A DNA stretch of 64,000 nucleotides from Amphiscolops sp. MND2022 (GCA_964187785.1 OZ076409.1:9488001-9552000); one strand, 5' to 3'. Shown: positions 1 to 42,330, numbered from the stretch's first letter. The notes: generated from the sequence alone by a model not told the origin. A program made the numbers and translations.

Positions 1-1539
1 TTGGGGAGCAATTGGGTGGGAGTCTCTAGCCACCTTCTTTGCTTCCTGAAGGGCAATCCCTAGAATTTCCTTCCCATCCTTGTCAAACAGTGGGGTGCCA
101 GGAATTTCCATGCGAATTCGGTGTTCTTTCGTCAAATGAGTGTCTGAACGGTAATGCGAAATTAATTCCAACGGTCCCCGGCTCATCAGCGATAGTTCCG
201 TCCTACATACTCTACACCACCACTTGTAAGGTGTTTTCTCAGCATCCAGAGGACCGGTTGCGGAAAATTTAAGTACTGGATGTTTCCTGAGCATACTCAC
301 TGTCAGTGAGTACCTAGGTCTCCTCCTCTTGCCATGTGTTGTCTGTTGCCTTTCATGCCCTTCAGATGACAGAGGTCTGGACGATGAGGGTCCGGGAAGG
401 TCTTCCTGACTTGATGTAGCTAGGAGTGTAGGATCCAGAGTGTGATCCACGATAGTTAGCGATAAGGGCTGATTAGCATCTACCCCTTCGCCGGACATGA
501 AGTTCTGTGGGATTCGTTCTAAGACACTACTTAGTGTCAGAATCTCCTGCCGAGTGACGTTAAGGCTGGGATAGGCAACGCCAGTAAAGTCCCCTTCAGT
601 AGGAGCAGTGCGGGTGGTTTCTTGAAGTCCAAGATTTCCAATCTCATAATTGGCGGGGTCATCGAGTAGAGTGGGAATTTCCCCCGTAGCGTCATCAAGT
701 AAAGTTGGAGTCAAATACTGCCCGAGTTGGAAAGGAGAAGCCTGGGCAATTTGGGGGGCAGGATAAGTCCCGGTAAAGTCATGCTGTAATACTGGATTAA
801 AATCGCCCATGTTAGTGGTGGGGGTAGTTGCAGCTGTTTCACCAAGATTGACACGTCTATCTGGGGAGTGTAATTCAGCTCTCTGTTTTGGTTCCTGTGC
901 TGAGCAGTTCTCTTCACGATTCACAGATGCAGGGGTAGTTACTACTTCTATACCCTCGTCAATGCTGAGAGGTTGAGCACTAGGAGACACAAAGGGAACT
1001 TGGAGACTGGCTGTTCTAGGCGAAGCTACTCCTAGTGGGGTAAACACTTTGTCAGGCGTCTTTACAGAAGGAGACTTTTCTGAAGTGGCGGAAGTTTTGT
1101 GAGGCGATTTTTCTGGTGAAGTCCGAGAAGTCCAGAGTTCAACTAAAACAATGATCTATTACCTAATGAAAGAAGGAAGTGGATCTGATCTAGCAAGCGA
1201 AACACGTTTGAAAATGCCTGAAACCGGACGCGGGGACAGGAAATGAAAGTAGAACGGAAGTAGCTTAGAAGTTCGAAGCGGAAACGTTTCAAAAAACCCG
1301 AATTTGGACTAGACATTTTCGCTAGCCATTTTCAAGCTGCAAGCCTGGCCAGCTTTGCAAAAAACCAAAAAGTCTCAAATCTGAATCAAAATGAACCAAA
1401 TCAAAACAAATGAGTTGAGCTTACCGGACATCGGATTGAGAGGTAAATCACTCCAAAAGTCGTCGCGGTGATGTGGCGATTGATCTTTTCTGGATCTTCG
1501 TTTGCCTGAAGAACCTGACCCGCCAGGTGTAGAATCCAT
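1..1539 (-). CDS. Spliced BED-type zinc-finger protein, 5' part (exon 1539-1425, intron 1424-1143, exon 1142 to beyond window start)
   Basis: Manual translation; absent from the ORF track because the frame runs off the window. ATG at 1539 (MDSTPGGSGSSGKRRSRK...), GTAAG donor at 1424 and TTTTAG acceptor at 1143, both phase 1. A stop-free 380-codon frame follows: S/T/P-rich linker, KRRRPR NLS-like patch, then WWCRVCRTELSLMSRGPLELISHYRSDTH (CxxC...H...H). Confidence 0.85.
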
Positions 1540-1907
1540 TATCCCACAAGAGTAATGAAATTATGCGAATTTGAAATTTTCCTGCTGGAAATGTTATGTA
1601 AAGAAGTCGGGGAAGATATGGATGAACTGCTTCTGTATGTGTGAACTACGACTAAAGACTGAACAAGGAAATTAACAATAAGTTGACTGAAAATGCAATA
1701 TACGTAAGAAGGCGTGGCGTAAAAGAAGGCAAAGAGCAAATGATGCAAGTTTGCGCAAATGTGCAAGAGAATACTATAATCTGATTGGTTAATTAAATGT
1801 CAATTTCGTCTGCCAGCGTGATTGATTGACTCATTGTGGATTCTGGATGAGAGAATACATGCAAATACGCTAATACGAACCAAATTGGAATGGTTTATAT
1901 GCTAGAG

Positions 1908-2056
1908 CATACGGCAGTATGCGGATCGACTAACAGCGAGTATACGGCAGTATGCGGAATTGCAGTGACGAGTATGCGGCAGTATGCGGAATTGCAGGCA
2001 AGGACTATGCGGCAGTATGCGGATCGAGTAATGACGCATACTCGGCATCCTGCAGT
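1908..2056 (+). repeat. Array of bipartite motif TATGCGG-CAG-TATGCGG, about 33-bp period
   Basis: Copies start at about 1908, 1941, 1973, 2006 and 2039 (degenerate). Half-sites are 10 bp apart and the sequence between units is variable. Confidence 0.85.
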
Positions 2057-2683
2057 TTTCGCTGTATGTATTCCAAAGGAGTGGATTAATATTGTCAATG
2101 ATTAGAAGCGTATGAATGGATGGTATTATGCAATATTACGAAGCAACTACATATTCTTAATGACAAAACACATGTGATACTATTAACGTGTGAATACGAC
2201 ACTGATGCTCTTTTGATTTTAATATGTTTTCAAAAGTCTAGACTGCTGGTACCCTTTGCAAGTTTTCCTAAATGGATTTACCAATAAACATGTAAACTTA
2301 TTTGCACTATTGCTAACCCTGTTGCATTTTTCAAAATGCAGGACCGGGATTAAACTGTGTTTTTCCTTAAAAATAAACTTTGATCCTGTAATAATCTGAA
2401 TTTGAAATGAAACATTCACGTTAATATTTTCTATTTTCATGTTTACCAAGTCATGAAGGATTAAATATATTTAATTCTGAACTGTTTAAATGAATACTTC
2501 CATGAAAATATTTCTTAGCTAGTTACTTTGAAGTTAGGATGAATTTGTTTATATATCATTTGAATATCAGAGGAAAACTGTAAGCTTTGATGATGACTGA
2601 TGATCCGTTGGAGCGTTAACTGAAACACCTTTTATGGAAATTGTTTACAACTTATTATGGATGAAACCCGAAAACCTATCCTC

Positions 2684-2690
2684 TATAAAA
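2684..2690 (+). promoter_or_regulatory. Putative TATA box of the 2894-3933 gene
   Basis: TATAAAA about 200 bp upstream of ATG 2894; AATAAA at 3985-3990 just after the stop. Confidence 0.4.
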
Positions 2691-2893
2691 CCCTTATAAG
2701 GGAAGTTAAAGGATCAGAACATGACACGCAATTTTTCCGCGGGTTTTCCTCCAAAGTCAGAAGGAAAGAGAAGAGAGATCACCATATGGTTTTCAATTCA
2801 ATTCACATTCAGCAGCTCTTTCACTCCAAATAAGTTTGTGAGAACTTTCTCTAAAAAATACACTACAGTAGAACCCAACAATAAAACAGAAGA

Positions 2894-3933
2894 ATGCGAA
2901 CCAACATAGACGAGATCTCTTCGCCCTCAGTTATCGACGTTTCCAGTGAGCCCGGGGAAGAGTTTATGGTGGAACCAGGAAATGTTCAAGCTCTGGACGA
3001 GAGATTCCGAGTGGGAGGCCCTTCCTCAGATGCCATGTCAGCCTTTGTGGGCGCAGCCGCCGCAACTCTGTTTCCCTCCTTTTCGATTCCCTACCAAACT
3101 GAGGAGGTCATTGATACTGATGGATCACAGATCGAAAGACAACTGATGGAACTGGTGGAGGAACACTCGAGCAATGGTTCAGTCTCGCCACCATCGTTTA
3201 TAGATACAGAATTCGAAGAATCCCCAGAGTCCCCAGATGAACTGGAAAAAAGTGGAAGCATGCCTGCGAATAGCTATGGCCGTCCGACCGCCTCAATTTT
3301 ACCGACTCCAAGGGGTCTTGGTAGGGGCAGAGGAACGGTTACCTGTCCTGTGCCGACATACCCACCTGGTTACTTGCCTCAAACGAGCAACTTTGACCTA
3401 ACAAGAAATGACATACAGGAAGTACAACCAGTGAATCCTGGTTCTGGGAACAGTGTCTATCAAAACAGACCAATTATTGCCAACCCAAATTTTCCTTTTA
3501 TTAGTATGCCACTACAGCAGAACGTCGTCCCAATGATGATCCAAATTCCACAGAACGCACCCAATTTCATAGCCAGCCCAGGAGGTTTGCATGCCCAACA
3601 ACAAGCACGCTATGGATTTACAGTACAAACTACCCACAGTACAAGTTTCCTGTTGTTGCCCCCCAGAGAGAGAGAGACGCATATCGCCTGTCCCCCACTG
3701 TGATGCCCAACATCGCTGGTTTTTGCGACTGGTGTGGCAGGACGTATGATCAAATCGGGTTGGAGATTCTCGGGGAGTACCTCCTCGCAACAGCGTATGA
3801 AGCGGAAACTGTGAGAGATCGCAATGTAAGGTCACGAGCTTTCATCGATGGATTTGAGGCAGCCCTGTTCACTTTCAAAAATGCAGGACTGTCGCAACCC
3901 AGAACTTGCGTGGGATCCGGAGAGCAACAGTAG
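2894..3933 (+). pseudogene. Accessory ORF of unknown function (about 345 aa), split by one frameshift near 3660-3678
   Basis: ORF 2894-3703 and ORF 3700-3933 join if the frame shifts in the CCCCC/(AG)n run, giving ...RERDAYRLSPTVMPNIAGFCDWCGRTYD.... Acidic, Pro/Gln-rich N-part; CxxC-containing C-terminal domain. Confidence 0.55.
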
Positions 3934-4218
3934 TTGAAGCGAACAGTGTGTCTGACCATCGTCTGAAAACTGTGAAACTTTCACAATAAACAATTTGTTT
4001 TATTTGTTTTCATTTTGCCTTTTCTCTTTTTCGAAAGTCATGTAAATAACTTGTACAATTTAATGTGAAAAGGGCCTAGTTTTACATGTCATTGAGAGCA
4101 AACAATTGCATAAAACCCGAGTTAGAGTAAAGGAAACACGTGTTGATGAGCAATATGTTACGTAACATTGATTCTTATTTAGCCCAATTTAGTTCAAATA
4201 CCATTTTGTGCTGACGAC

Positions 4219-4405
4219 TATGCGGTAGTCTGCGGTTCGAGCAGTACCGCATACTCGTCATTATGCGTTATTTTGTCAAGATTCACTATGCGGCACCCTA
4301 CAGTTCGAGGAGTGACGCATACTCGTCACTATACGTTTTTTTTTGCAGAAACACTATGCGGTATTCTGCGGATTGTGTAGTGACGTATACTCGTCATTAT
4401 GCGGT
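4219..4405 (+). repeat. Second array of the element-A motif (TATGCGG/TACTCGT variants), about 33-35 bp period
   Basis: Copies at about 4219, 4252, 4286, 4320, 4355 and 4388, e.g. TATGCGGTAGTCTGCGG and TACTCGTCATTATGCGG. Confidence 0.8.
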
Positions 4406-4838
4406 TTTAGCAGGACCTTCTATATAGCTTTGGAAGCTGAAGTAATGCTATTTGGAAACCATCTTAAATGTATTTTATATCGCATTCTAGGTAATTTCCA
4501 GGGTTTTCCCTAGTCCTTTCCTTAAATATACTTAGAACGTGATGCAATTCAGCTGATGCTATAAATAGAATGACGTTACCCTGACGTAATCCTATTTTTG
4601 TCTTTTCCAAATAATGATTGCAGTAAAAATGAGTGTCATGGTATTTTTGGAGCTATTTCATTCTAAAAACTGAAGGAGAATTCATTCAATCCTGAACTGT
4701 CAACAAGTGCAGTTGCTTCTTCAAACATCTGTAAACCTTTTGGTAATTTGCTGATACTCTAGTGTCTTGTTATTTCAAATAGACAAGATAATTCAAATTC
4801 TCCCCCAAAAGCCAAAAACCATTTTCACCCAAAGCAAT

Positions 4839-5418
4839 ATGGGAAACAAACGCAATAGACGATCTAGGAGATTAGAGACTCCTTCCCCAGAAAGAGAAGT
4901 GGAAGTAACTCAAGTAGGAATACCCATTACAGGTAATGAGACTTTAACTAATTCTAATACGGTTGTTCAAGAAAATTTAGGTGAAAACAATTCAGAGGGC
5001 CAGTTGATCGAACCCAGTGTAGTTAGTAATGAAATTCAAGCCTGGACCCAAATTATGGAACAAAAGACTAATGATCGAATTGAAAAAATGAGAGAAGAGA
5101 TGGAAAACAATCTGGAAACAATCTTAAAAGAGATAAAGTCTAACAAAAGCGCTTCTACGGCAACAAATCCAAGGTCAGAAATTAACGAAAACATAGATCA
5201 GCAACCGTCGGGATCCAAAATAGATAGGTCTAATGGAGTTCACGCATCAAACATTGGAAATTCTGATTCTGAAAATGACGATTATCCTCTTAGGGCTTCT
5301 AAAATGAAAGATCTTAGACATCCTGCAAAGCCTTTGTTTCGAGCTGAATCAGATGTAGACGTAACTATACATTCAGACGAAGAGTCTGATGCAGAGAGCC
5401 TAGGTGAGGATTATCACA
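4839..5418 (+). pseudogene. gag: Gag N-terminal segment embedded in the presumed 3' LTR of element A
   Basis: MGNKRNRRSRR..., a coiled-coil stretch (EKMREEMENNLETILKEIK) and an acidic tail ending EDYH. Same organisation as the LTR-embedded gag start of element B. The remainder of the ORF-track call reads flanking DNA and B's LTR. Confidence 0.55.
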
Positions 5419-5440
5419 GCACGACAATAAATACAATATA

Positions 5441-7683
5441 TGTCGAGCCCTACCCTGTGGGTCGGCTTTGAAGAACTTTGCGATGTTGAAGGTAAGTTAT
5501 TTTCATCATTTTTACTAATAACTGCCATCAATAAGTTCTTCAGTTGACTAAATTCGCTTTGTAACTCATTTATCTTCTTCTCATAGTTCTCTTTTATTTC
5601 AGACAATTGGGACGAGATATCTGAAGGTTCGTTATTGTCAGAGTCATTGGCGGACGATTGAGCCATGTCTGGATCTATTGGAGGAGATGTTCCTGACGAG
5701 GAATGTATAACTCTACCGCTTCTAAGTTCAGTGCCTTGGTCCGGATTTATGTATTCGAGAGAAAAGAATTATGAGTGAAGACTGAATTATCTGAGATGTG
5801 TTTTCGATGTATCTTGCTGATTTAACTGAATGTTCGATCCCAAAATTCACTAATTTGAACTGAGATGTTTTAGAAAGTAGTCGTACAAATAAGTAAGCAG
5901 TTATATAAGGAAAAGAAAACTAGCAAGTTATTCAGAAGAAGTTCATCCAATGTTCATCGCAGTCGTAGATGTACCAAGAAATTACTCAGTTTAAATTTCT
6001 CAATTTCTGAAGATGAAATAGAGATGTGTTTTCTGACTTTTGCGTGTTAAAATATCCAACTTGTCGGTAGCTTGTCGCAATTCGGGCTGAGTAATATTTA
6101 ATGGCGGTCCAAATTACAGCAGTTCACGTGTCTTTTCGGTTGGTAAGACGCTAAATCTCTTACCAACCTTCTCTCATTGGCTGTTACCAGCTGGTGTTAA
6201 AATGGTAAGTCACGTGACCGGTGTTGTGAACTGCCGCAAAGTGGCCACGCACCATGGTACATCTACATGTGTTAATGGTGTTTTAGTCATCAATTTACAG
6301 TGTCGCAATTGCCTGCACATAACATCATGGTTTCTATAGTAACTAAAATGGACTCAAATTATTCAATAACGCACTAATTTCAAGCAAATTTAAGGTAAAG
6401 CACACTTTGGGATGGGAAAACGATGTTTTCCGCTGATTCTAGCACCAAAATCAATGATTTAAAACTTGAAGATGGAAATGCGATGAACTTGTAAGAATAT
6501 TTGCTGATTTCCAAGTATAGTTTAGCTCTGGATGAAAATGCGATGAATGGTAGTCTTTCTCGCTCGGAAATCAACACAATTCAAACTGACGATGACAAAA
6601 GGATGAACTCCATGTACAATTTGTCAATTTCCAGCACAGATTCAAATGACGATGAATTAGGGATGAATCCAGTCGATAAACGCTAATTCTAATACAGGAG
6701 ATTTTTGGCGATGGGTTTAGGATGAACTTGTCAGTTAAAACAGCAAATACCAGAGCAATACAAATTGACGATGAGTTTGGGATGAACTCACCGGTTAAAA
6801 CACCGAATACTAAAGCAGTTCGATTTAGCGATGAGTTTAGGATGAACTCACCCACTAAAATGGTTACTTTTCTGCACAAACGAAATCAAGATGAATTGAG
6901 GATGGGTTTACTAAACAAATCAGATAACCAGCACTTTCACTCTTTTTAGGATGAATTAAGGATGTACTTTCTCATTTCTCTTCTGTACTAGTGAACGCGA
7001 TGAATAAAGGATGGACTACTGTTCTTTAGAAACGAGAAGCACATTCAGGAATTACTAAATGAAATAATCACGATGAATTAAAGATGAGTTTTACTAGAAT
7101 AAGTCCCATAAAATCCGCTGATGGATTTCTGATGAAAGTCAGTTTAAAGTCCCATGTTTTGTTCACTCGCAAACTTTAAGGATGGGATTGCGGTGAACTT
7201 TGGTTAAAAGCACCGTTGAACCCGCTGATGGATCCAAGTGAAATTTCTGATCAGATCAAAATCGTCATCAAATTCGACGATGAATTTGTGATGAATTTAA
7301 TAGAATTTGTCACAACTACATACTCTGAGGCGGGGAGTTAGTAGAAGTTATATTTTCCATTACTTCCAATATTCCTCGGTCCAGTCTGACCGGAAAACTT
7401 CTCTCCCTTGTCGTGACAAACCAATATTTGAAATATAGCACTTTCAAGGCTAGATTCTGGCAAGATCATTTATGCGGACACCGGAACTAGAGCGCTCAGT
7501 ATTAAGTAAATATATATAACTCACACTCAAAAGGGGAAGGGATTAAAGTACAAGTAACGTAGGGTTGCTCACAACCATGGCCCTTATTATATGACATCAT
7601 ATTGCCCATATCTAAGTACATAAGACATAATATTTACATTACAGATATTAAGTAGATTACATTTCCATCATGCTGGCATGACA
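5441..7683 (-). repeat. 3' LTR of element B (2243 bp)
   Basis: Matches 22000-23833 except for a 411-bp block (6625-7035), a 2-bp indel and about 8 substitutions seen by eye. Confidence 0.95.
6411..7293 (+). repeat. LTR array of GATG-N7-GATG motifs, mostly 60-bp period
   Basis: Motifs start at 6411, 6471, 6531, 6591, 6651, 6710, 6770, 6830, 6890, 6950, 6999, 7072, 7120, 7181 (variant) and 7279; the intervening sequence is divergent. Confidence 0.9.
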
Positions 7684-7697
7684 CTCCCCGGGGCGGG
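7684..7697 (-). other. Putative short polypurine tract of element B
   Basis: Minus strand reads CCCGCCCCGGGGAG directly before the LTR start TGTCATG; only the last 6 nt are purines. Confidence 0.5.
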
Positions 7698-8986
7698 ATT
7701 TGGATTGAGAGTGCAGGGGCCAAATGTGCAGAGGATGGTTGTCTCGGCGTTGGCTTCGACTGGTTCCTTCGTTTGGTTAGGGAGAAAATTGGTCCTTCGT
7801 TCGTTCTGAATTGGCATTTCCTTCGTTTGTTCTGTCCTGTGTGTATCTTCTCTGAGAAGAGGACTATCGGCAATCGTCATGTCTGGCTTCATTCTGGGTG
7901 ATTTCGGTTAAAAATTTCGACGCGGCAACTCTAATTCTTGGCCCATCGAATGTCCGCTGATCTGCATTTTATTGGTTGTCATGCTTTTGGTGGGAGCTCA
8001 GTCTGTCGATTGTTTCGGTGGAAATCTCGATTTCCTGGTGAAAAGATTTCCTCAGGCCGCCTACGCTAAGTAAACATTCTGCTAGTTTCGTTGACAATTT
8101 GGCAGTAAATCGGCGCCATTTCTTGTCTGCCGAAGTTTCCCGGGATGAATGAACGATGAATTGTTTACTCAGCGAGACATCGATGTTGACTTAACAGACG
8201 GCTGGCGCCGCCGCTCTGTCAATCTCCGCGATAGGAAAGAGATGATTTTGTTGTCATAGCAACCGTCACTGTCGCTTCCGCTGTCTGATTTTCTCAGCGA
8301 TGAGAAAGAGATGAAATCGTCGCCATAGCAACTGCTGCTAAATTCTGATTGGCGGAAAACTGAATTTTCTGAACTGGAGGAAACTCAACCGGTTGTTAAC
8401 AAACATTCTCATCCGTGAATCATCTTCCGTCAAGTCGGTTTTGAAAATCGCCACGATTTCCTTTGCGCGTTTCCGCTCAACTTCGTCGGCATTGATCTGA
8501 GACTGGCAGCTGTCATCAAAATCAAATACTTGAAGCTTTTGTAGTCAAATTCTGGGGGGCGATTCATTTTCAGAGAAAATTGCTAAGTTGGTTGAAACTG
8601 GGAAGAAAAGTGTAGAGAGTCATTGAAATCGGAGAGTTTTCATCGATTTTTCATCTTCTGAATTTCAAGTATTTGGTTTGTCCTGTCGCTCAAGCAGCAT
8701 TCGCGCTCTTTAAAGTTTTTCGTGAATTTGTAATCTCGCAATCATGGTTGATCAGGCCATTTAATTACTGATCAAATTCTTGTCCTCAGATTCTTCGATT
8801 TCGTTCCTTTCTTCACTCTCTTCCGTTCCTTTTCAGATTGTTTTGCAATTCTTCACGATGTCGGATATCCACTCCGTCTATTCGTTACCGGAGACCGAGG
8901 CCACAGAAAATAAGTGCACTATTTTTTCTCTTCTTCACAAACGGGTTAGGGAATAATTAGGAACTGAAGGCGTGTCTTGGTTTTAG

Positions 8987-13446: not shown

Positions 13447-13838
13447 GAAGATTATCGTCTCCAATTGTATGCGAAGCTAGGATACACGCTTAGTGGGGAA
13501 CGAGCTGCCAGTCCGGAGATCGGCAATTAATGATTGAGATCCAACTGTAAACTCCGTTGTTTGAAACTTTTGTTTTGCTTTGCTCGATTTTATATTATAG
13601 TTAGTATTTTGTTATCATAATGGGTTGCCAAGAGAAATGAGAATACTGGGAGGGGGGAAAATTAAAAGGCTACGTCGGAAAGTTCGGTAGCTTGTATTTA
13701 CAAGTTAAATGATGTGGCACCCGAATTGTTTTTCTCTTGAGATACTAGTTAGTGATTGAGGTCGTAGGCAGGTTAGGTTTGCGGATCATTAGTTTCTGCT
13801 GTTAGGTCACGTCATTCAGAGTTTCAAATTTCATCTAG

Positions 13839-14221
13839 CATCGTTTTCACATCGTTTTTGCGTTGTCACAATTCTCAGCTAGTCTTTTTGCGGTAATCAT
13901 CGTTATTACATCTCGTGGGAGTGTAGGTGATTCGGTAGCGTTTCATTTTTGATTTCTCATCTCATTTTCATCACGTTTTCCTCGGTCGGCCGAGCGACGT
14001 TGCGAAAACTGATTTCTCATCTTTTTTACATCGTTTGTTATATGCGATTCATTGCATGTTTGTTACATGTGATTTTTCTACATAGTTCATCGTTTTTTCA
14101 TCTTGCCTTTTAATTTTTGCATTTTTGCTAGTTTTTTGGTGTAATTCATCGTTTTTGCATCGCAAGTTTGACTTGGCAAGTTTTTTGCTCGTTTTGCGGT
14201 ATAGTTCATCTTCTTTTCATC
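13839..14221 (-). repeat. Array of the element-B motif (CATC-N7-CATC), about 60-bp period
   Basis: Starts at 13839, 13898, 13958, 14018, 14088, 14147 and 14207. Confidence 0.88.
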
Positions 14222-15150
14222 GTAATTTTGAAGTTTTGTAATTTTGTGCGTTTTCGTGGCTCTGTGACTCTGACGTTTTCGGGAATGTACTTTTCATATG
14301 GTATGTGCATGTTTTACTCATTTTATACTGTCTCAGTATGATTTTCATTCTCTTTTTAATTTTACATGTCGTTTTGGTGTTCGTGGTATTTTCATAATGT
14401 AATCTTTTAATGGGTTACCCCATTATTTGCATGTTGGTTATTTCTTGATTTTGTTCGTCAATTTGGACAGGGCTTTGTCGTCTCAAAGCCCCTACAAAAC
14501 TAACTGAGAATCCACTAGCCGCTGGATAACCAACGCAGCAAGCTTCATCCGAATATGGTTGTGAGCTCCCCGCCTCAACTAACCAGCACTCTTTTCAGAG
14601 AAATGCCAGCCAGCACGAAGGAATGTTTTTGGCTTCTCGATAGGGGTGTTTTGCTTGTTATGAACTGATGTTTGCTGGGGGGTGCTCACTCCTTTATTCG
14701 TTTTGTAGGTGTTTCGTCAGTTCTTATATTTTGCATGTAAGTTATTAGGCTTCATGTATTTTCGATTGTTTGTTTCATTTTTATTCGTCTAGGTTTGGGT
14801 GGCTTTGGTGTGAATTGCATATATTATCTCGTTCGTTTTTAAACGGTACATGTATATTTCCGTGTGTTACTCATTTGTATTGCATGTAGTTTGGAATTTT
14901 CAATTTCTTTCGTGACGTCATTGATTTGGCAGGTCTTTGAACTTTACATGTATTGATCATTTCATTTTTGTGTCGCATAATTCTGTTTGCATGATTCGAA
15001 ATAAAGTCGGTTGTTTTTTATCGTTTCGTGGAGTTACATGTTGTTTGAGAGTTAGCTGATTTATTGTGATGTTATGTTGATGGTGTTTCCCATCGCAAGG
15101 AGGTTTTGGTAAGTCATTTAATATTTTCGAACTTCCATTTAGACTAAATT

Positions 15151-15685
15151 CATCGTTTTGACATCCTCCAGCGAAGCTAGAGTATTGTGTCAGGTTAACG
15201 ATAAATTCGGTCACGATTTGATGGTAGCGTCCATCACAAATTCATCTCGTTAATTGATTTCATGTAATTTATGAATAATTGGATCGAGTTCATCGCTATT
15301 TCATCCTCTAGCCGAGCTAGAGTCTTATGATAGCATGAACGTGAGTGCGTTCGCATTCTGATGGTATTTTCCATCTCAAATGCATCGCTAGTAAATATTG
15401 CATGTTGATTGGTCGAATTTTTGACTGAGTTCATCACTTTTTAATCTCTCGTGTGTCTGAGCTAAATTTTCATGTGATTTCATCCTTTTTTCATCTCAAA
15501 TTTTTGTGTGTTGTTTTTTCTGGTTTTTTGGTCGTTTTTCATCCGTTTTACATCGTGTTTTGTTTTTATGCGTTTTTCATGTGATTTTTAGTAACTCTTC
15601 ATCCATTTTACATCTTCATGTTCATTTTAAATTGAAATTGCATGTAATTGACTCGTTTTTGTGAATTGTTCATCTTTAACACATC
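15151..15685 (-). repeat. Array of the element-B motif (CATC-N7-CATC) just 3' of pol
   Basis: Starts at 15151, 15232, 15291, 15372, 15432 (variant), 15481, 15540, 15600 and 15671. Confidence 0.88.
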
Positions 15686-15713
15686 GTGTGTTTTGAAATG
15701 TTGTTTTTCTTGG

Positions 15714-18700
15714 CTAACTCGTTACGTTTACTTTGTTGGTCTTTCTCAGAGAGTTTCTGGCTGATGTAATCTCATGAATGAGGAAGTCAGGATATTTTTT
15801 CGGTGTAGGGTTTTCGCGTAACCTGTACCTACTTTGATTGTTTCTAGACGGTCTAGAACTCATCCTTTCCTCATCTTCAGTTTGTGTGTTTGTCTGTTGT
15901 GATTGATTTTCGTGTTGTTCGTCTCTCAGAGGTACTCTTATCCTACTTTCATCGCGGGGGGGGCGGTAGAATAATTTCTTCTTGCGTTCCAAATCTAACT
16001 CTAGGTGGTCTAAAGTTGTTGTGGTCAGTTTCTACTTGCTGATAATCTATTCTCGTGGTTACTTCTGGTGGAATTACTTGTGGACTGTGTTGTTCTTGTA
16101 CCTGCGGAATTATTTCTTCTGAAGGCTCTTCTTCGACTAAGTCTTGATCTAGATTGTCATTCTCATTCTGATCTACTTCGTCGGTCGTCGGAATATTCGA
16201 GTCGAAAATGTCCGTGTCTTCAACCCTTTCAGTGTCTGGGTAGAGATGTTTGGACACGTTGATGTCATCAATCGGAAATTCCGGTTTGAACAATCTCAGT
16301 CGCATGCGATGTACGCACTGAGTTTGGTGTGTGCCTACTTTGCGGATGATGTAGTTGCTATCGGATAGCACTTTCATCACCTTGTACGGTCCTTTCCAAT
16401 GGAAAGTTTTAAACTCTTCTTTGCTTCTCTGAGAGTCGTACTTATGATCTAGTAGGAACACAAATTCATTCACCTTCAGTGGCTGTGCTCGTGCTTTTCT
16501 ATCATAGTACGTTTTGTACTTATGATAGGCGGAAATGATGTTATCTAGATTGTCTCTGAAGATGAAGTTCATTTTGTCTAGAATTTCGTTCACGTCCTTG
16601 CACTTTGTTTCAGCCGGTTTGTTTGCGTTTCGGAATTGCAGATCTAGTGGGTTGTATGGTGTTCTTCCGTGGAAAATTTCAGTTGGTGAACATTTCAGTG
16701 AATCATGATACGTTGTGTTATGGGCCATGATTGCTATGTCGACATAGCGGTCCCATTGTGGTCGGTCTGCCTTTACACTAATTTTAAGGATCTTTTTCAG
16801 TTTCGCGTGCGTTCTCTCCACCATGCCTATTGTCTGTGCGTGCTTTATCGTGGCATGGGAGATGTGAATATCAGCCGCTTTCGCGATTTCAGACAGAAGT
16901 TCAGCCGTGAACGCCGTGCCCTTGTCCGTCAGAATGTGCTTGGGCACATACGCGTGTTTCGTGAAGATCGACAGTAATCCTCTGACTACGGAATGTGTAT
17001 CAGGTCTCTTCAGCGGAACGGCGAACAGGTAGCGTGAAAAAACGTCAACAGCCGTCAGAATGTGTGTAAAACCGTTCGACGCCGGGAGTGGACCAACGAT
17101 GTCTATTTCCAACAGGTCTTCTGGTCCGTCGCACGGGTCGTAGATTTTTTGTAACGGTGGACGTAGTTGCGTTTCTTTTACACTTTTAGATTTCATGCAG
17201 TTTTCACATCCGTCAAGGACTTTTTGAACTTTACAGGCTAAGTTAGGAGAGTAATATCTTTTACGAAGTTCGTACAACATTTTCTTTAAACCAGGGTGTC
17301 CTTGTACCGGGCTGTTATGTAGAGTCCTAATTATTTTCAAAATACAGTCTTCAGGAACAACTAACTGCTTGTGAGACTCCAGTCCCGTGTGATCAAAAAA
17401 CTGTCTGTACAAGACACCGTTTACAACTTGTAGGCGTTTTCGATTTTTGTGCAACTTTTGAAAAAACTGATCTTGCATATTAACTGGGTGTTGCAAAATT
17501 TCAGTACCTTCTAAAAATCTAATCATTTTTTGAAAAACCCAGTTATTTTTCTGGACCTGAATTAGATCGATCCCCTCAGCGGGGCTAACCTGACTCATTA
17601 CCGGGTGTGATAATGATACTTTACGGATGAATTGCGAGAGTTGAATTGGCTCGTCCACGTCTGTGAGGCGGTACGTCAGATGGTTGTCAGTCGCGAAGTC
17701 ATCTGAGGCCGCTGTTCTCTCACAGTTGGTGAACTTCATCCCTTTCCCATCGTCATGAGCCACGTCAGTGCCAGTTGCCAATTTCATCTCTTTGACATCC
17801 TTCTGGCGTTTGCATCTGAGTGGTTCGCTCGTGGGAAAGTAATCAGGCTCGTCTTCCTCCTGTTTTGGTGTACGGGAGGCGATGTCGATCTCGATCCTGT
17901 GAATTGGAATAGTATCAGTCAATTTTAAATGTACACGGTCTTCAGGTCTAATCTCAAGCCGAGATAAGTAGTCCGCTGCGGGATTTTCAACTCCTGGAAC
18001 ATGTGCTAATAAAAAATTGAACTGAAGGGTTTGATCGCAAAAATTCCAAAGTGAAGGCGGGATATGCTTCGCCTGAAAAAATCTAGTCAAGGCCTTATTG
18101 TCAGTCATAACAATGATGGGTTTTTTCGCACCCCACAGAATGTGGCCAAATTCATCGAAGGCAAAGTGCATAGCTAAAAACTCTTTGGCATACATTGTTA
18201 GAGACATCTGGCCGCCCTGAAATTTCTTAGAGCCAAATGCAACAGGGGCGTATGTTTGTTTGACTGACGGGTCAGCATAATCCTCAATTAACAAAACATA
18301 GCCGGCAGCGTGTTCGCTGGCGTCACACATGATTACCAATTGTTTATCAGGTAATGGCAATTTCAGAGACACTTTTGTTGCTTTTAACAAACTTTCATTG
18401 ATTTCAAAAATAGCATCTTTATGTTGTTGATTCAGTTTGAAAGGGACGTCCTTCTTGATCAATTCCTGTAAACAACAAGTTTTATCAGCTAGTCGGGGAA
18501 TATAAGACCTGTAAAAGTTTACAAAACCAAGATAACGTTGCAATGCTTTCACTGAGTTGGGGGGTTTTAATTTGGTCAGATAGTCAGTTACTCGTTTCTC
18601 AATGGGAGCAATACCGGTGCTAGAAATGGTTTTTCCCAAGTACTCAATTTGTTTTTGTCCAAATTCACAATTACTTATGCTAAGTTTAAGACCGGCTTTG

Positions 18701-20807
18701 TTCAGCTGCTGAAAAACAAGTTCAAGGTTATTAATCAGTTCGTCAGGGGTGTGTGCTGCAATTCCAATGTCATCAACATATTGAGCACATCGGTCCGCTT
18801 TGACCAAGAGGTCCAAATACTCACGGACTACACTTGTGAATGATGACAAAGAACGGGTAAGACCTTGGGCTAGACGTAAAAAGGCAAAAGTTCTAGAACC
18901 AAAATTAAACGATAACAGTTGGACAGACTGCTCATCGGCCATTGGAATGCAATGGTAGGCCTGGGAACAATCAAGTTTACAGAAATACTTTTTCCCGGCC
19001 ATGTGTTGGGCAGCGTCAGCAATTGTTTTTACAGGATGGTTGTGTTCACCGTAATCGTTTTTGATCATGTGGTTTATTCTTCTCAAGTCAACTAAAATCC
19101 TCAATTTACCATTTGGTTTACGTTGAGCAAATATCGGAGATGAGTATTTGCTATGAGGCAAAGTAGTTATGATCCCGTACTCTTGCATTAAAGCTAACTC
19201 CACGAGCAAATCGTCCTTCAAATTTGTCGGAGTAGGGAGACTTTGTGAATAAACAGGTTCTTCATGTTGGGGTGTTAGCTTAACTTTAAAATCAGTGTTC
19301 ATGCCAATATCAAAACGATGTCTAGCAAAAATGGAGTTGTACTTTACCAGCAACTCCTCTACCTGTAACCGTTGAGACGGAGTAAGAAGCGAGTCGTCCC
19401 AGTTGAAGTTCTTCAGGAAGTTCATCCGTTGTTCATCGGATTGGGACGGGTCAAGCTTCTCGAGCTCTCGTAGTGCCAGAATCTCATCATAGATTCGTCG
19501 CTCAATTGCGTTGAGTTTGTCTGGCTCACTGCACGTCTCGGGAGTTGGGTACCACTTAGTTGACTTCATTTCAGGGTTCACGAACAGTTGGTTGATCACT
19601 GCTTCCGCCTCATCTGGGTACTTGGTGATCAGGTTCAAGTGTTCGACTGGCATGGGTGTGATGTTTGCCGCCTGATGTGGTGTCGGTATGCGAAAGTGTG
19701 CCAGAGTGGTGTTGGCATCAAGTGTGAACGTGTGGTTGTTCGGGTTGGTGACCTGGATTGTCGTCTTGCCCTCGTCTAGGTCAACCAAAGCTGGAGAAAC
19801 AAGCAAACACGTCTTTCGCATGAATCCAGGTGAGCCCTCAACTGTACCAGTTGTAAGTGAGATGTCCGCGTCACTGTGGACCTGTATCATCACTTGATGG
19901 AGAGGAGGGATCACTGTTCTGGTACTGGAACACAAATCAATTAAACCAGTCTTGAATCTGTTGTTCTTTTGCTGTCTAACTTGCATGGACATCATGTGAT
20001 TAGGGAAGTGGACAAGGTGGTTTTTTATGTCTAAATTGACTGAGTACTTTCAAAGAATGACATTCCAATTAAAATTGTGCCCATTGTTGGAAGGATTAGG
20101 AACGTTTCTTCGAAGACTTTTCCAGCAACGTAAAATCTAAGTAAGACTTGCTTACGTACTGGGACTAAGTTCCCGTTTGCTATTTGAATTTTGAAATTCG
20201 GAGGGGGGAGTTCTTGAAGGATGGCTTCTGGATGAGCCGTTGTTATTTTTCGCAATTATGCTTCAGACATTGCACTTTGAATTGCGCCTGTATCTAAAAG
20301 TGCGCTGTTTTCATATTTGTCAAACTGAAGAGGGACGTAAAGCATTTTATCTTTCTTGTTTAAGTGTAAAGTGGGACTGAGAACGTGAATTTCTGTTTTA
20401 ATTACATGTTTTTTAGCTTTTGAAACGTTAATACTACTCTGTTTTGCATGTTTTTTAATACTATGCCGTTTGTCGATTGTTGAGTGTGAAGTCGAGTCGT
20501 CGTCAAGATGGTTGGTTTCCATCTCTTTGGCATCTTCCACCTGCCTCATGGTGTTTTGTTGCCAGTTCATCGTTTGTTCATCGTTGATTTCAGCGAGTGG
20601 AGAAAAGCGGCTGCCGTTGCGTTGACGTGCAATTCCCATCGCTTTTTCATCGTTGGAAAGTCTTCGCTGATAGACGTCGTCAGCTTTTGGTCGTTTGTCC
20701 AGTGAAGGCTGCCATTTCTTCATTGGACGGTTGTGTGTAGTCGGTTGAGTCGAAAGTCGTTTGTCGCGCGTTGTATTTCTAGCGGGCGGAAACCGTGGCT
20801 GAATCAA
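15714..20807 (-). pseudogene. pol: Pol polyprotein of element B (protease, RT, RNase H, integrase) with three lesions
   Basis: LLDTGA protease; RT motifs KLDCSQAY and YVDD; RNase H CDAS...EFLA...TDN; integrase H-H-C-C, DIVGP..TDKG..VER and WKGPY. In-frame TAA at 20256-20258, a frameshift near 20045 and another in the G-run near 15960. Confidence 0.95.
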
Positions 20808-22309
20808 AAACCCTGGTTAATGTCTTCATCAGAGTAGCTTAGTTGTTCGTCGTCCTCAGTAATTGCTTGCATTGGATTCATCAGCTTTTGCTGTCGTTTT
20901 AAATCTTGTCGTCTAGCCTTGTTGTCGTCCTGTGAATTTGTTGTGTATGGAATCTTTCCATATGCAGAGCTGCTTTCCTTGGGAATGCGTCGCCTGCAGT
21001 CTCTTGCAGAGTGGCCGGTGTATCCACAAATCTGGCAAACCAGCTTGGGATTGTACTTCGGTTTGTCTGTGTCGGTTGCTTTCTTCATCGGAATTGCATC
21101 TTCTTTCTTAATGCCGTTTGCTTCGTCACGTTGTCGGGCGCGGCATTCTGTTTTGCGGTGACCTGTCTTTCCGCAGTAGAAGCATTGTCCCTCAAATCGT
21201 TTTCGTTCTGTCGGTTGTGTTGTCGTCGTTGTTGCTGGTTTAATCGTTGTGTTGGTCGTTGGGACCGAGGATGTGACCGCGTTAAATGGTTGAATTGTCG
21301 TAGGTGGCGCAACGTACTGTTGGTACTGGTACTTTCTCATCAAGTATGTCTTGATTTCTTCTGGTGAGCTCTCCTCCTTATTGGCCATCGTAAGTTCTTG
21401 TTGTATTTCGACTGGGAGTTTACCGAACAAGAACATTTTGATGATTTTATCCGCTTCTTCCCCAAATGCTTGTTTCGCAGTCTTTTTCAAGTTTTTGAGG
21501 AAGTCGCTGAATGTTTCTGTGGTGGGATCGTAACGGGCTTGATCCCATTTGTAGCGAGCTACTTCTTTAAGGTCCTCTTTCGCGAATTCTTTCCTGAAGA
21601 GGTCGAGCACATCTGTCAGTGTTGCTAGTGGCGTTATCTGGATGGATTGCCAGTATTCTATTGCATCATCTCTCAAAAGGCTTTGAAAGAAGTGGAGTTT
21701 GTTCTCTTCGGTGATTTTGTTGGCGAGCGGGCTAAGGTGGTTGAGGAGAAGGTGCTCGAATTCCACGAATTTGTCTTTTTGGCCTCTGAAATTTGGGACG
21801 TGTGTCTGTAGTAATTTCGTGTTGGTGGTGGTGCTTTTGATTCGTTGGGGGATCGTCTCGATTGCATTGAGTAGTCGTTCCTCATTGCTTCTAGGAGTTG
21901 ATTCACCTTCTTCGTCCGAGTCGTCTTCCTGGTATCGCCTGAAGTTTGTGAAGCTGGATGTCGGGCTGGTGGAGCGGGTTTCTGTAACTCCTGTCACCAT
22001 GTCGAGCCCTACTCTGTGGGTCGGCTTTGAAGAACTTTGCGATGTTGAAGGTAAGTTATTTTCATCATTTTTACTAATAACTGCCATCAATAAGTTCTTC
22101 AGTTGACTAAATTCGCTTTGTAACTCATTTATCTTCTTCTCATAGTTCTCTTTTATTTCAGACAATTGGGACGAGATATCTGAAGGTTCGTTATTGTCAG
22201 AGTCATTGGCGGACGATTGAGCCATGTCTGGATCTATTGGAGAAGATGTTCCTGACGAGGAATGTATAACTCTACCGCTTCTAAGTTCAGTGCCTTGGTC
22301 CGGATTCAT
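20804..22309 (-). CDS. gag: Gag of element B (501 aa) with two CCHC zinc knuckles
   Basis: Capsid-like region VPNFRGQKDKFVEFE...LRDDAIEYW; knuckles CFYCGKTGHRKTEC and CQICGYTGHSARDC; ends on a GGGTTTT slippery heptamer. Confidence 0.95.
   Translation of the reverse strand: MNPDQGTELRSGRVIHSSSGTSSPIDPDMAQSSANDSDNNEPSDISSQLSEIKENYEKKINELQSEFSQLKNLLMAVISKNDENNLPSTSQSSSKPTHRVGLDMVTGVTETRSTSPTSSFTNFRRYQEDDSDEEGESTPRSNEERLLNAIETIPQRIKSTTTNTKLLQTHVPNFRGQKDKFVEFEHLLLNHLSPLANKITEENKLHFFQSLLRDDAIEYWQSIQITPLATLTDVLDLFRKEFAKEDLKEVARYKWDQARYDPTTETFSDFLKNLKKTAKQAFGEEADKIIKMFLFGKLPVEIQQELTMANKEESSPEEIKTYLMRKYQYQQYVAPPTTIQPFNAVTSSVPTTNTTIKPATTTTTQPTERKRFEGQCFYCGKTGHRKTECRARQRDEANGIKKEDAIPMKKATDTDKPKYNPKLVCQICGYTGHSARDCRRRIPKESSSAYGKIPYTTNSQDDNKARRQDLKRQQKLMNPMQAITEDDEQLSYSDEDINQGF
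21986..21999 (-). promoter_or_regulatory. Primer-binding site of element B
   Basis: TGGTGACAGGAGTT immediately follows the LTR end ...CTCGACA. It resembles the complement of a tRNA-Leu 3' end; isoacceptor not certain. Confidence 0.8.
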
Positions 22310-23833
22310 GTATTCGAGAGAAAAGAATTATGAGTGAAGACTGAATTATCTGAGATGTGTTTTCGATGTATCTTGCTGATTTAACTGAATGTTCGATCCC
22401 AAAATTCACTAATTTGAACTGAGATGTTTTAGAAAGTAGTCGTACAAATAAGTAAGCAGTTATATAAGGAAAAGAAAACTAGCAAGTTATTCAGAAGAAG
22501 TTCATCCAATGTTCATCGCAGTCGTCGATGTACCAAGAAATTACTCAGTTTAAATTTCTCAATTTCTGAAGATGAAATAGAGATGTGTTTTCTGACTTTT
22601 GCGTGTTAAAATATCCAACTGGTCGGTAGCTTGTCGCAATTCGGGCTGAGTAATATTTAATGGCGGTCCAAATTACAGCAGTTCACGTGTCTTTTCGGTT
22701 GGTAAGACGCTAAATCTCTTACCAACCTTCTCTCATTGGCTGTTACCAGCTGGTGTTAAAATGGTAAGTCACGTGACCGGTGTTGTGAACTGCCGCAAAG
22801 TGGCCACGCACCATGGTACATCTACATGTGTTAATGGTGTTTTAGTCATCAATTTACAGTGTCGCAATTGCCTGCACATAACATCATGGTTTCTATAGTA
22901 ACTAAAATGGACTCAAATTATTCAATAACGCACTAATTTCAAGCAAATTTAAGGTAAAGCACACCTTGGGATGGGAAAACGATGTTTTCCGCTGATTCTA
23001 GCACCAAAATCAATGATTTAAAACTTGAAGATGGAAATGCGATGAACTTGTAAGAATATTTGCTGATTTCCAAGTATAGTTTAGCTCTGGATGAAAATGC
23101 GATGAATGGTAGTCTTTCTCGCTCGGAAATCAACACAATTCAAACTGACGATGACAAAAGGATGAACTCCATGTACAATTTGTGAAGCACATTCAGGAAT
23201 TACTAAATGAAATAATCACGATGAATTAAAGATGAGTTTTACTAGAATAAGTCCCATAAAATCCGCTGATGGATTTCTGATGAAAGTCAGTTTAAAGTCC
23301 CATGTTTTGTTCACTCGCAAACTTTAAGGATGGGATTGCGATGAACTTTGGTTAAAAGCACCGTTGAACCCGCTGATGGATCCAAGTGAAATTTCTGATC
23401 AGATCAAAATCGTCATCAAATTCGACGATGAATTTGTGATGAATTTAATAGAATTTGTCACAACTACATACTCTGAGGCGGGGAGTTAGTAGAAGTTATA
23501 TTTTCCATTACTTCCAATATTCCTCGGTCCAGTCTGACCGGAAAACTTCTCTCCCTTGTCGTGACAAACCAATATTTATGAAATATAGCACTTTCAAGGC
23601 TAGATTCTGGCAAGATCATTTATGCGGACACCGGAACTAGAGCGCTCAGTATTAAGTAAATATATATAACTCACACTCAAAAGGGGAAGGGATTAAAGTA
23701 CAAGTAACGTAGGGTTGCTCACAACCATGGCCCTTATTATATGACATCATATTGCCCATATCTAAGTACATAAGACATAATATTTACATTACACATATTA
23801 AGTAGATTACATTTCCATCATGCTGGCATGACA
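22000..23833 (-). repeat. 5' LTR of element B (1834 bp)
   Basis: Direct repeat of 5441-7683 with a 411-bp deletion at the 23183/23184 junction; contains the first 103 codons of gag. Confidence 0.95.
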
Positions 23834-30900: not shown

Positions 30901-31169
30901 TGTACTGACCTACATTAATAACCAATAGTATTTAGATGTTTATAGAATGTTCTAGAATGTACATTTATTTGTTATTGAATGATTGTAAATCTCTACTCCC
31001 TCAGAGAGAGAAAACGAATAATCAGTATTCAGTTGACTTCCTTTTTGTTCTACTTCTAACACCTCGAACTAGTTGTAATAAAGTAAGCTAGCTAGCCTGT
31101 CTCTCAGCCGCTTTTAGTAGTTGTGAATAAGACCATCCAAAGAAGTAACCAACCATTAAAAGCAGCACA
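30901..31169 (+). repeat. 5' LTR of element D
   Basis: Direct repeat of 48705-48973; contains AATAAA. Confidence 0.96.
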
Positions 31170-31401
31170 ATTTGGTGCGACTTGTAAAGCCCTTTTCTCC
31201 TGGATGATTTCTCTTCTCTCAACAATCATACAAATACCCCTCTCCATATTTGAAATTCTCTGGAATTGCAGTGAAATCTTTCTAGAATTCCTTGAAAGTT
31301 TAGTCTGTGACTTTCTGAATTTCATCAATAAATACATCATCGTTCGAAACACAATTTCTCCACTACAAAAATCAATTTAAATATAACAAATTTTCTTCAC
31401 T

Positions 31402-40697: not shown

Positions 40698-40869
40698 ATA
40701 CGGAATACAGAAAGAAACACACAAAGAAAATTTGAGAGAAAAGCAAAAGTTTGAAGCTTACTGTGAAACTGAATGAAAAAAATTTTACAAGTGATATTAA
40801 ACGAAAGAAATCGATATGAAACTATAACTACTTTATAAATTGAAACAAACTACCTTAACACAAAGATTT

Positions 40870-42328: not shown

Positions 42329-42330
42329 CC

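Follow-up and report, generated by a model that had tools for sequence, protein, structure and literature searches.

In Retand, a Tat-lineage Gypsy element of plants, the region from pol to the 3' LTR holds antisense open reading frames (ORFs) for a probable DNA-binding domain together with tandem repeats that are specific to each family (PMC11963269). The additional antisense ORFs of Retand, Grande (gene23), RIRE2 and PvRetro13 are of unknown function and are thought to be regulatory (PMC11963269; PMC7264820). In Arabidopsis, the VANC proteins of VANDAL transposons act on their own family and target short motifs, often non-coding tandem repeats, which differ between related elements (PMC5735166).

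We analysed a 64,000-nt stretch of the Amphiscolops sp. MND2022 genome (GCA_964187785.1 OZ076409.1:9488001-9552000; hereafter the window), in which two complete Ty3/Gypsy elements, A and B, of 16–18 kb each were located. As far as the available parts of the sources go, Retand is the closest known architecture, and the design of an antisense gene with arrays has a precedent there. Shared features are a long region between pol and the 3' LTR, an antisense ORF and family-specific arrays in that region. Elements A and B differ in that Pfam scans of their antisense exons did not find Transposase_28 (TRP28, PF04195), and in that their gene comprises no fewer than five or six exons, with ~930 codons; the word 'intron' does not occur for Retand-type ORFs in the available parts of PMC11963269 and PMC7264820. 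Their arrays occupy U3 and an intron as well and consist of short paired motifs spaced by one helical turn, and the antisense gene is hypervariable on near-identical backbones. With the VANC system, as described in the accessible part of its source, A and B share a predicted element-encoded protein and family-specific short-motif arrays. VANDALs are Mutator-like DNA transposons, whereas A and B are retroelements; VANC binding and loss of silencing have been demonstrated, whereas for A and B both would be predictions; and the A and B motifs are unchanged among subfamilies. Among retroviral antisense genes, HBZ of HTLV-1 encodes a small bZIP factor, whereas the A/B-type protein would have ~930 residues and a CCHH finger, with expression and splicing predicted.

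In our best explanation, A and B would be members of a single giant Ty3/Gypsy lineage in which a spliced accessory gene has been retained antisense to gag-pol. The most likely role of its product is that of a trans-acting nuclear regulator of the transcription or chromatin state of its own element. Taken as a whole (lineage, accessory regulator gene, selected arrays and recombining cassettes), this explanation has in our view an even chance of being correct.

Two neighbouring Ty3/Gypsy elements

The elements and their parts were placed as follows (window coordinates; negative values lie upstream of the window).

1–5418, plus strand: 3' part of element A (whole element 16.0 kb, −10612 to 5418), from the LTR pair, target-site duplication and primer-binding site
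3890–5418, plus strand: 3' LTR of A (TG...CA), including the gag start and ~220 gag codons
5419–5440, no strand: host DNA between A and B, 22 bp, with one duplication copy per element (GCACG, TATAT)
5441–23833, minus strand: element B, complete 18.4 kb Ty3/Gypsy, from LTRs, duplication, primer-binding site and Pfam
5441–7683, minus strand: 3' LTR of B, 2243 bp, gag start inside, array longer by ~410 bp than in the 5' LTR
15949–20049, minus strand: B pol (RT, RNase H, integrase), from Pfam
20256–22327, minus strand: B gag (two CCHC knuckles) and protease frame, from ORFs and Pfam
22000–23833, minus strand: 5' LTR of B, with an array at 22970–23441

Element A starts 10.6 kb before the window, which begins downstream of its gag and pol. 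The LTRs of A (−10612 to −9085 and 3890–5418) were 98.95% identical over 1530 bp, and those of B (5441–7683 and 22000–23833) 99.4–99.5% identical. Target-site duplications were GCACG for A and TATAT for B, and the same primer-binding site (TGGTGACAGGAG) was present after the LTR in both. The original prediction had assigned region 1–5418 to an LTR element, and the LTR pair, the GCACG duplication and the primer-binding site bore this out. Pfam matches on B were, in order, zf-CCHC (1.8e-7), RVT_1 (1.5e-20), RT_RNaseH (2.6e-16), Integrase_H2C2 (2.1e-13) and rve (1.1e-13), with a weak match only for the protease (0.096). Based on paired LTRs, TG..CA ends, duplications, primer-binding sites and gag-pol domain order, A and B are Ty3/Gypsy LTR retrotransposons. 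Their pol proteins shared 42% identity over 970 amino acids.

A predicted antisense gene with a conserved zinc finger

1 to 1155, minus strand: large exon of the A antisense gene, open frame running on to −251 (469 codons), CCHH finger at ~216–73
9644–10297, plus strand: B exon E3, a Pro/Ser/Asp-rich variable module, from periodicity, dN/dS and the gene model
10298–10969, plus strand: B intron with an array at 10465–10827 (6 units), conserved although the flanking exons diverge
10970–11529, plus strand: B zinc-finger exon (C33, C36, H53 and H59 of the exon translation)
11656–12141, plus strand: B exon E5, from periodicity, dN/dS and the gene model
12261–12456, plus strand: B exon E6, from the gene model
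12593–13446, plus strand: B exon E7 with the stop at its end, ~30–70 codons longer in other subfamilies

Each element had been proposed to carry an intron-containing gene antisense to gag. The antisense orientation was confirmed and introns were inferred, but in both elements the gene sits clear of gag, in the interval from pol to the 3' LTR. The introns were deduced from 3-base-periodic coding blocks separated by GT-AG stretches. They are antisense to the genomic RNA and would therefore survive reverse transcription. In the B gene model, five GT-AG exons joined into 915 open codons with the sole stop at the end, and the splice dinucleotides were conserved in at least 80% of 11 copies; exons upstream of E3 ended at 9146 and 9339. 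The predicted B product of ~930 residues consists of a variable proline- and acid-rich head, the conserved CCHH finger and ~600 residues that fall into no known family. Our searches linked none of the exons to a protein family, a solved structure or a named relative. The large A exon was 3-base periodic across seven A-type copies, with an invariant finger and KRRRP motif.

Both finger peptides quoted in the original prediction were recovered, that of A in the minus-strand frame 1–1155 and that of B in the plus-strand frame 10963–11556. Their proposed homology also held, with 14 identities in 48 positions (pairwise E 4e-4) and a profile-to-profile E of 0.0017 over 50 columns, at a probability of only 15.7%. 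Homology between the A and B genes was weak but collinear in three separate exons.

Codon identity of the antisense gene across copies was ~0.40 at position 3 versus ~0.8 at positions 1 and 2. The dN/dS, where computable, was 0.06–0.08 in the finger exon, 0.07–0.14 in E5 and 0.22–0.34 in E3, a range (0.06–0.34) indicating that the gene is under purifying selection. Genome-wide, the three gene families had 3108, 6591 and 3894 candidates, and 133 of the 150 scored finger-exon matches were free of stops. The finger was the most conserved part: 40 of the 82 N-terminal exon positions were invariant versus 26 of the 104 after them. The absence of a known domain or named relative in our searches would suit open frames that arose by chance or a captured host gene in decay. 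This explanation is very improbable and, going by the alignments, already contradicted by the selection signal, since dN/dS is low at saturated synonymous divergence and the frames are open in diverged subfamilies, with conserved splice sites and five exons that join in an open frame. The antisense gene is very probably functional.

The finger ligands are C33-x2-C36-x16-H53-x5-H59 in B and C-x2-C-x15-H-x5-H in A. In the AF2 model of the B finger exon (pLDDT 86.5), strands 30–33 and 38–41 and helix 47–54 (pLDDT >90 there) place the ligands on a β-hairpin and a helix, the C-x2-C...H-x(3-5)-H/C arrangement of zf-BED (PF02892). A pair of aromatic residues before the finger is a feature of BED domains. 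The finger resembles the BED fingers of hAT transposases and ZBED proteins in its CCHH pattern, such an aromatic pair, the hairpin and helix of the model, and sub-threshold zf-BED matches. Nevertheless, the BED membership that had been claimed was not supported: zf-BED was the commonest Pfam match, but always below the cut-off (8 of 46 relatives, best E 0.0016). The B finger exon scored 12.9 bits (E 0.12; gathering cut-off 20.6), and zf-BED was absent from whole-ORF Pfam scans of A and B at E ≤ 0.1. Fold comparison was likewise weak; the first Foldseek match of the finger-exon model was Hermes (8edg_A), but at an E of 1.4, and the solved BED domain of ZBED1 (2ct5) ranked 46th (E 4.5, TM 0.41, rmsd 4.0 Å over 53). 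The suggested hAT ancestry found no support, as Pfam, PDB-sequence and fold searches gave no hAT core. Neither the RNase H-like DDE core nor the dimerisation domain of hAT matched any exon in Pfam, and the PDB profile searches were empty. The E5 model (pLDDT 46) had a strand-strand-strand-helix order compatible with an RNase H-like fold, which is unreliable at this pLDDT, and gave no Foldseek match at E ≤ 0.001.

The finger model fitted small spliceosomal zinc-finger chains, which we take to have matrin-type fingers, at least as well as the solved BED domain, so an RNA-binding (U1/matrin-like) finger has to be considered. The repeated motifs would then act in genomic or antisense RNA, for instance in export, packaging or dimerisation. 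The best superpositions (7onb_M, Z 3.8, rmsd 1.9 Å over 47 residues; 8qo9_G, Z 3.4) and the His-x5-His spacing agree with this reading, but Z values below 4 on a 47-residue finger do not discriminate, and zf-met and zf-C2H2_jaz had one weak Pfam member each versus eight for zf-BED. Weighing these points and the array orientations described below, we regard RNA binding as improbable.

A divergent, cassette-like antisense gene on near-identical backbones

In eight of the nine copies with alignable pol, codon positions 1 and 2 were 96–99% identical and position 3 was 0.83–0.98 identical. The ninth had identities of 0.89, 0.93 and 0.67 by codon position, and pol similarity was lost in a tenth copy. 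The antisense coding sequence was 45–75% identical between copies, with a pS of 0.41–0.83. Judged from these alignments, copies with near-identical pol have reached synonymous saturation in the antisense coding sequence, a new observation.

Region-specific hypermutation during replication could produce such a pattern in place of recombination of old alleles. Consistent with this, divergence was restricted to the antisense gene, and its small introns were as diverged as third codon positions. On the other hand, divergence was arranged in block-wise mosaics, one copy being 0.89–0.97 identical to B over 10063–10363 and 0.6–0.78 beyond. Ten copies whose finger exon differed by 0.5% differed by up to 36% in E3, and E3 and the block from the finger to E7 assorted independently. 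Young copies had no excess of exon change (0.5–1.1% versus 3.2% in the array intron), and the array intron was conserved within the diverged gene. Hypermutation is thus a quite improbable explanation. The antisense gene instead behaves, in these comparisons, as a recombining, hypervariable cassette with independently assorting modules, which is also new here.

In the recombination reading, anciently diverged coding versions would move between near-identical backbones, with the conserved array-bearing segments as common flanks. Exchange may occur by recombination during reverse transcription or by gene conversion between genomic copies, which fit equally well. Many diverged cassettes on near-identical backbones are expected under diversifying or frequency-dependent pressure, such as host repression.

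Paired-motif arrays and their possible binders

1905–2023, plus strand: A array 1, period 33, TATGCGG pairs spaced by 10 bp, lying between ORF3 and the start of the antisense gene, kept in 7/7 A-type copies
2885–3933, plus strand: A sense-strand ORF3, two frames in the window copy, no known domain in Pfam
4217–4403, plus strand: A array 2, TATGCGG, period 68, inside the LTR, from comparison of A-type copies
6411–7293, plus strand: B LTR array, GATG-N7-GATG every ~60 bp (CATC on the element sense strand)
13839–14221, minus strand: B array 3, 7 units, from the motif count
15151–15875, minus strand: B array 4, 10 matches at ~60–190 bp spacing, immediately beyond the pol end

The element-specific paired-motif arrays of the original prediction were strongly enriched, and within the window each was confined to its own element. 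TATGCGG-N3-TATGCGG with at most one mismatch had 5 matches (0.00 expected), TATGCGG 13 (2.9 expected), of which 11 lay within 1918–4404, and GATG-N7-GATG 67 (1.98 expected), of which 66 lay within 5795–23441. The matches formed phased arrays with periods of 33 and 68 bp in A and of ~60–80 bp in B. In an unbiased count of paired words, GATG/CATC at 11 bp ranked first in 11/11 B-type copies, and CCGCAT(A) at 10 bp ranked first in six of the seven A-type copies and second in the other. Every copy examined, 11 of B type and 7 of A type, kept the arrays in position, and the antisense-gene intron held one array in A and B alike. Within the array units, 8 core bases were kept in every unit, and the other 52 positions had a pairwise identity of 0.36–0.42. 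We hold it highly probable that the arrays are selected; they would be superfamily-specific cis-regulatory sites in U3, in one gene intron and beside pol.

Orientation bears on the RNA-binding reading. The three A arrays run in the same direction on the sense strand, with one exception, which agrees with it. In B, the LTR arrays and the internal arrays run in opposite directions, which speaks against it and favours recognition of double-stranded DNA.

Host-factor site arrays are common in LTRs and untranslated regions of retroelements, so the presence of arrays is by itself no pointer to a binder encoded by the element. The arrays may be sites for a host transcription or insulator factor, comparable to the host-factor sites of Drosophila gypsy, with an antisense protein that serves an unrelated function (RNA export, immune evasion or inter-element competition). 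This explanation fits their location, since U3 and the adjacent non-coding DNA are where one would expect enhancers, and it fits a constant motif beside a strongly diverged protein. In a third family of the antisense gene, the 9.2 kb examined also lacked paired arrays, and an array adjoining that copy was missing from 4/4 other copies. Against host factors, the related superfamilies A and B use wholly different motifs in the same paired one-turn geometry, the protein is most conserved in its finger, and an array sits in the gene intron of both. We regard host-factor sites as a plausible explanation with less than an even chance.

A per-family co-evolution of protein and motif had also been predicted. 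It found no support among 11 B-type and 7 A-type copies, as the motif was unchanged inside each superfamily while identity of the finger-exon protein dropped to 61% (B) or 44% (A). One contrast is therefore all that remains, namely that finger and motif both differ between A and B. That the finger protein binds the arrays is possible, with a likelihood similar to that of host-factor sites. In an extended and rather unlikely version, the conserved finger would anchor the protein to its own arrays, the variable modules would form an arms-race interface with host silencing or rival lineages, and the conserved array segments would double as sites of binding and as flanking homology when cassettes are exchanged in reverse transcription. 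If true, such a specificity system, carried by a retroelement and switching cassettes, has not been described for Gypsy elements as far as our literature searches show.

ORF3 of element A formed a single frame of 347–373 codons in five of the six other A-type copies and of 298 codons in the sixth.

Structure of elements A and B and their motif arrays

The limits of element A were obtained by self-comparison after 20 kb upstream of the window had been added (negative positions). Positions 1–5418, which the original prediction had placed within an LTR element, are the 3′ part of a complete element. It has a pair of 1530-bp LTRs (98.95% identical, TG..CA ends), a 5-bp target duplication (GCACG) and a primer-binding site, TGGTGACAGGAG, directly after the 5′ LTR. 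The primer-binding site is common to A and B, and the LTRs of B are 99.4–99.5% identical, with the duplication TATAT. Both elements merit the label giant (16.0 and 18.4 kb), and just 22 bp separate them in their tail-to-tail arrangement. The gag of B contains two CCHC knuckles and is followed by a weak protease match, reverse transcriptase (RT), RNase H and integrase (Pfam). The pol proteins of A and B share 42% identity across 970 residues; a homologue search with pol returned only ENA proteins without names. In both elements the gag frame opens within the LTR, which holds about 220 of its codons in A and about 100 in B, so that the primer-binding site falls inside the gag reading frame.

Features of elements A and B (window positions)
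-10612 to -9085 and 3890-5418, + strand: LTRs of A
5441-7683 and 22000-23833, - strand: LTRs of B
4755-5418: gag start within the LTR of A (from frames and LTR limits)
5441-5768 and 22000-22327: gag starts within the LTRs of B (from frames and LTR limits)
9644-10297, + strand: predicted B antisense exon E3 (this and the next four from GT/AG edges and periodicity)
10970-11529, + strand: predicted finger exon
11656-12141, + strand: predicted exon E5
12261-12456, + strand: predicted exon E6
12593-13446, + strand: predicted exon E7
Both LTRs; 10465-10827; 13839-14221; 15151-15875 (one gap of about 190 bp): GATG arrays of B (from motif positions)
LTR; upstream of the antisense gene; one intron of the gene: TATGCGG arrays in the 7 A-type copies

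The paired-motif arrays reported for the two elements are genuine, their counts in the window far exceeding chance. TATGCGG-N3-TATGCGG (at most one mismatch) had 5 matches against 0 expected, and TATGCGG alone had 13 against 2.9, of which 11 lay within 1918–4404. For GATG-N7-GATG, 67 matches were found against 2.0 expected, 66 of them within 5795–23441. The GATG pairs recur at intervals of 59–81 bp in five arrays, whose neighbouring units share no more than the pair of GATG cores and a handful of adjacent bases; pairwise identity at the remaining 52 positions was 0.36–0.42. Tandem Repeats Finder overlooked most of these arrays. Units in the LTR arrays were placed by the positions of motif matches, as a fixed 60-bp register slips by 1 bp, making its core identity of 0.44 meaningless. 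In B, the GATG array of the 3′ LTR exceeds that of the 5′ LTR by about 410 bp, or some 7 units (6625–7035 versus 23183/23184); array length has changed inside this one element. An Rfam scan of the window returned no family.

A predicted spliced antisense gene with a BED-like finger

The zinc-finger gene opposite gag-pol, between pol and the 3′ LTR, was modelled from an alignment of B with ten further B-type copies (genomic relatives of B; finger-exon identity 61–87%). Strong 3-base periodicity ran along the plus strand from 9644 to about 13500, with an identity of about 0.40 at one codon position versus about 0.8 at the others, and was broken by short aperiodic stretches edged by conserved GT and AG dinucleotides. 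The five exons thus delimited join into 915 open codons with a sole stop at the end, and an extra upstream exon ending at 9339 leads to the first methionine (about 928 codons). Where computable, dN/dS was 0.06–0.08 in the finger exon, 0.07–0.14 in E5 and 0.22–0.34 in E3. The antisense gene of A gave the same signals in seven copies. Together, these signals indicate that the predicted gene is real and selected. E7 of the B copy in the window stops about 30–70 codons before that of several other subfamilies (13446 versus about 13520–13600). Its last-exon frame has 311 codons versus 343–383 in those subfamilies, and codon periodicity in the alignment runs on beyond the stop at 13446.

Both finger peptides quoted in the original prediction were found in the sequence, with identity at 14 of 48 positions (E 4e-4). 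A tblastn comparison of the A and B antisense regions gave nothing at E ≤ 0.01; with the limit relaxed to E ≤ 5, nothing was prominent but the finger, at E 0.014, and a stretch of 15 residues, at E 0.023. Profile comparison matched the two genes at three collinear places: E was 0.0017 for the finger, 0.013 for the end of the exon after it and 1.7e-4 for the C-terminal exon, where the match covered 154 columns. By these links, the antisense gene probably predates the split of A and B rather than having been captured twice.

The finger had been called a BED finger. BED-like is a fair description, given the ligand pattern and the sub-threshold zf-BED matches, but membership of the family is not supported, as B scored 12.9 bits against a cut-off of 20.6. 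The hAT origin that was also proposed is possible. No antisense exon attained a Pfam threshold; zf-BED was the commonest match, found in 8 of 46 relatives and always below threshold, with a best E of 0.0016. Searching 1.84 billion representative proteins with a profile gave 89 matches, all short fragments without names save one spurious lipocalin and a 564-residue three-finger protein, and a cluster look-up of the matches gave no named protein. The three-finger protein (P0077, from ENA) has three tandem C-x2-C...H-x5-H fingers, each after a W...D-rich stretch; its Pfam matches (ZNF592-like, 9e-6; zf-BED, 0.0045) were both below cut-off.

The confident AF2 model of the B finger exon (pLDDT 86.5) contained a hairpin-helix finger. 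Fold searches with it did not discriminate between finger classes; the C-terminal helical hairpin dominated them, and they barely probed the finger. Foldseek placed the Hermes transposase at rank 1, but at E 1.4. Comparison with a solved BED domain gave a TM of 0.41, and the finger segment scored Z 3.4–3.8 on small spliceosomal finger chains. The strand order of the E5 model would fit an RNase H-like fold; with a pLDDT of 46 the model is too uncertain for fold comparison, which gave no match. PDB sequence searches with profiles of the B finger exon and the A C-terminal exon returned nothing meaningful, and the ESM Atlas gave no usable match.

Diverged antisense genes, near-identical backbones and constant motifs

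In nine of the ten extra B-type copies pol could be aligned; the tenth loses similarity near 15360. In eight of the nine, identity to B was 93–99% at the first two codon positions and 0.83–0.98 at the third (ninth copy: 0.89/0.93/0.67). The LTR, 5′ region, array intron and 13960–15950 of these copies were mostly 85–99% identical. Their antisense coding sequences were just 45–75% identical, with pS of 0.41–0.83, at or near synonymous saturation (NG86 pS above 0.75 was read as saturation, not signal). Since equal mutation rates cannot yield saturation in one gene and 2–17% in another on the same molecule, the alignments imply that old, selected versions of the gene must move between young backbones via recombination. 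Region-specific hypermutation could also give a divergent gene, but is unlikely because exons of young copies carry no excess change. Mosaic blocks were seen, one copy being 0.89–0.97 identical to B over 10063–10363 and 0.6–0.78 beyond. Among ten copies with a mean finger-exon difference of 0.5%, differences reached 36% in E3 and 12% in the array intron. Conserved array segments are located at the cassette junctions.

The original prediction had motif and protein co-evolving family by family. This was not supported within either group, where the motifs stayed constant while the proteins diverged: GATG-N7-GATG arrays were kept at the same places in 11 of 11 B-type copies (finger-exon proteins down to 61% identity), and TATGCGG arrays at three places in 7 of 7 A-type copies (proteins down to 44%). 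Each group lacked the motif of the other, save for single TATGCGG words in the LTRs of B. Within the protein, conservation was highest in the finger region. The pattern fits a pairing of finger and array at superfamily level, but as a single contrast.

We consider a spliced antisense accessory regulator the best reading, with a logic like that of HBZ or plant antisense ORFs, in which the arrays would act as cis sites kept by selection. Binding of the arrays by the element's own finger protein is possible, though we lean somewhat against it; in the main rival reading, they are bound by host factors. A lesser rival is a role at the RNA level, with an RNA-binding finger. The LTR arrays of B are inverted relative to its internal arrays, which favours recognition of DNA.

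A third family of the antisense gene comprised 3894 candidates, and no paired arrays were found in the 9.2 kb looked at of one copy. GATTCCATGC pairs, 10 bp apart with a period of 32, adjoin that copy (L039, G000:C1:9444400-9454399, reverse-complement 20-760). This array was rejected as a third-family feature: paired arrays were absent elsewhere in that copy, and none of four other copies had it at the matching place, which makes another element its probable source.

Known systems and other elements in and near the window

Little is understood of the accessory genes that LTR retroelements carry, and antisense ones are known mainly from plants, with unknown function. According to excerpts of PMC11963269, the region from pol to the 3′ LTR of plant Retand elements holds antisense ORFs that encode a probable DNA-binding domain (TRP28), together with tandem repeats specific to each family, a combination and position that A and B share as far as those excerpts go. 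PMC7264820 reviews further plant elements that have antisense ORFs, and VANC proteins bind motifs that are specific to a family and often arranged in tandem (PMC5735166; both sources in part). No description of an intron-containing antisense gene of this kind in Gypsy elements was found in the open-access literature. As far as that literature shows, the large predicted multi-exon finger gene, the paired one-turn motifs also in U3 and an intron, and the hypervariable recombining cassettes are new.

With thousands of copies of a large, selected antisense gene with predicted splicing and sharply defined arrays, this lineage makes direct tests possible of whether the finger binds the arrays and whether the protein activates or de-silences its own family. 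Saturated divergence of the antisense gene against near-identical pol in the same copies is unusual, and provides a natural setting in which to study modular evolution driven by recombination, and possibly host-element conflict, in a retroelement. In annotation, such intron-bearing element genes could pass for host genes.

A-type copies have a sense-strand ORF3 whose end overlaps the beginning of the 3′ LTR (window 2885-3933, + strand; 1588-2685, - strand, in the stretch L033). It has 347–373 codons in five of six other A-type copies and 298 in the remaining one; in the A copy of the window, a change of frame breaks it in two. It had no Pfam family and no counterpart in B. Upstream of A, another element (L011, window -19997 to -16357, + strand) has three long sense ORFs of 395, 449 and 179 codons.

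A third giant element, which encodes RT, RNase H and integrase, occupies 30901-48973 (+ strand); 17.8 kb separate its terminal repeats of 269 nt. The ORF at 42541-44640 in this element matched Pfam Monjiviricetes_fusion, a viral fusion glycoprotein (3.7e-24), which identifies it as a predicted env-like gene of negative-strand-RNA-virus type; no family was found for several other sense ORFs of the element. Window 51181-56774 is a local duplication with units of about 3.7 kb at 98–100% identity, within which an extra repeat occurs at 52003/52787, spaced 784 bp.
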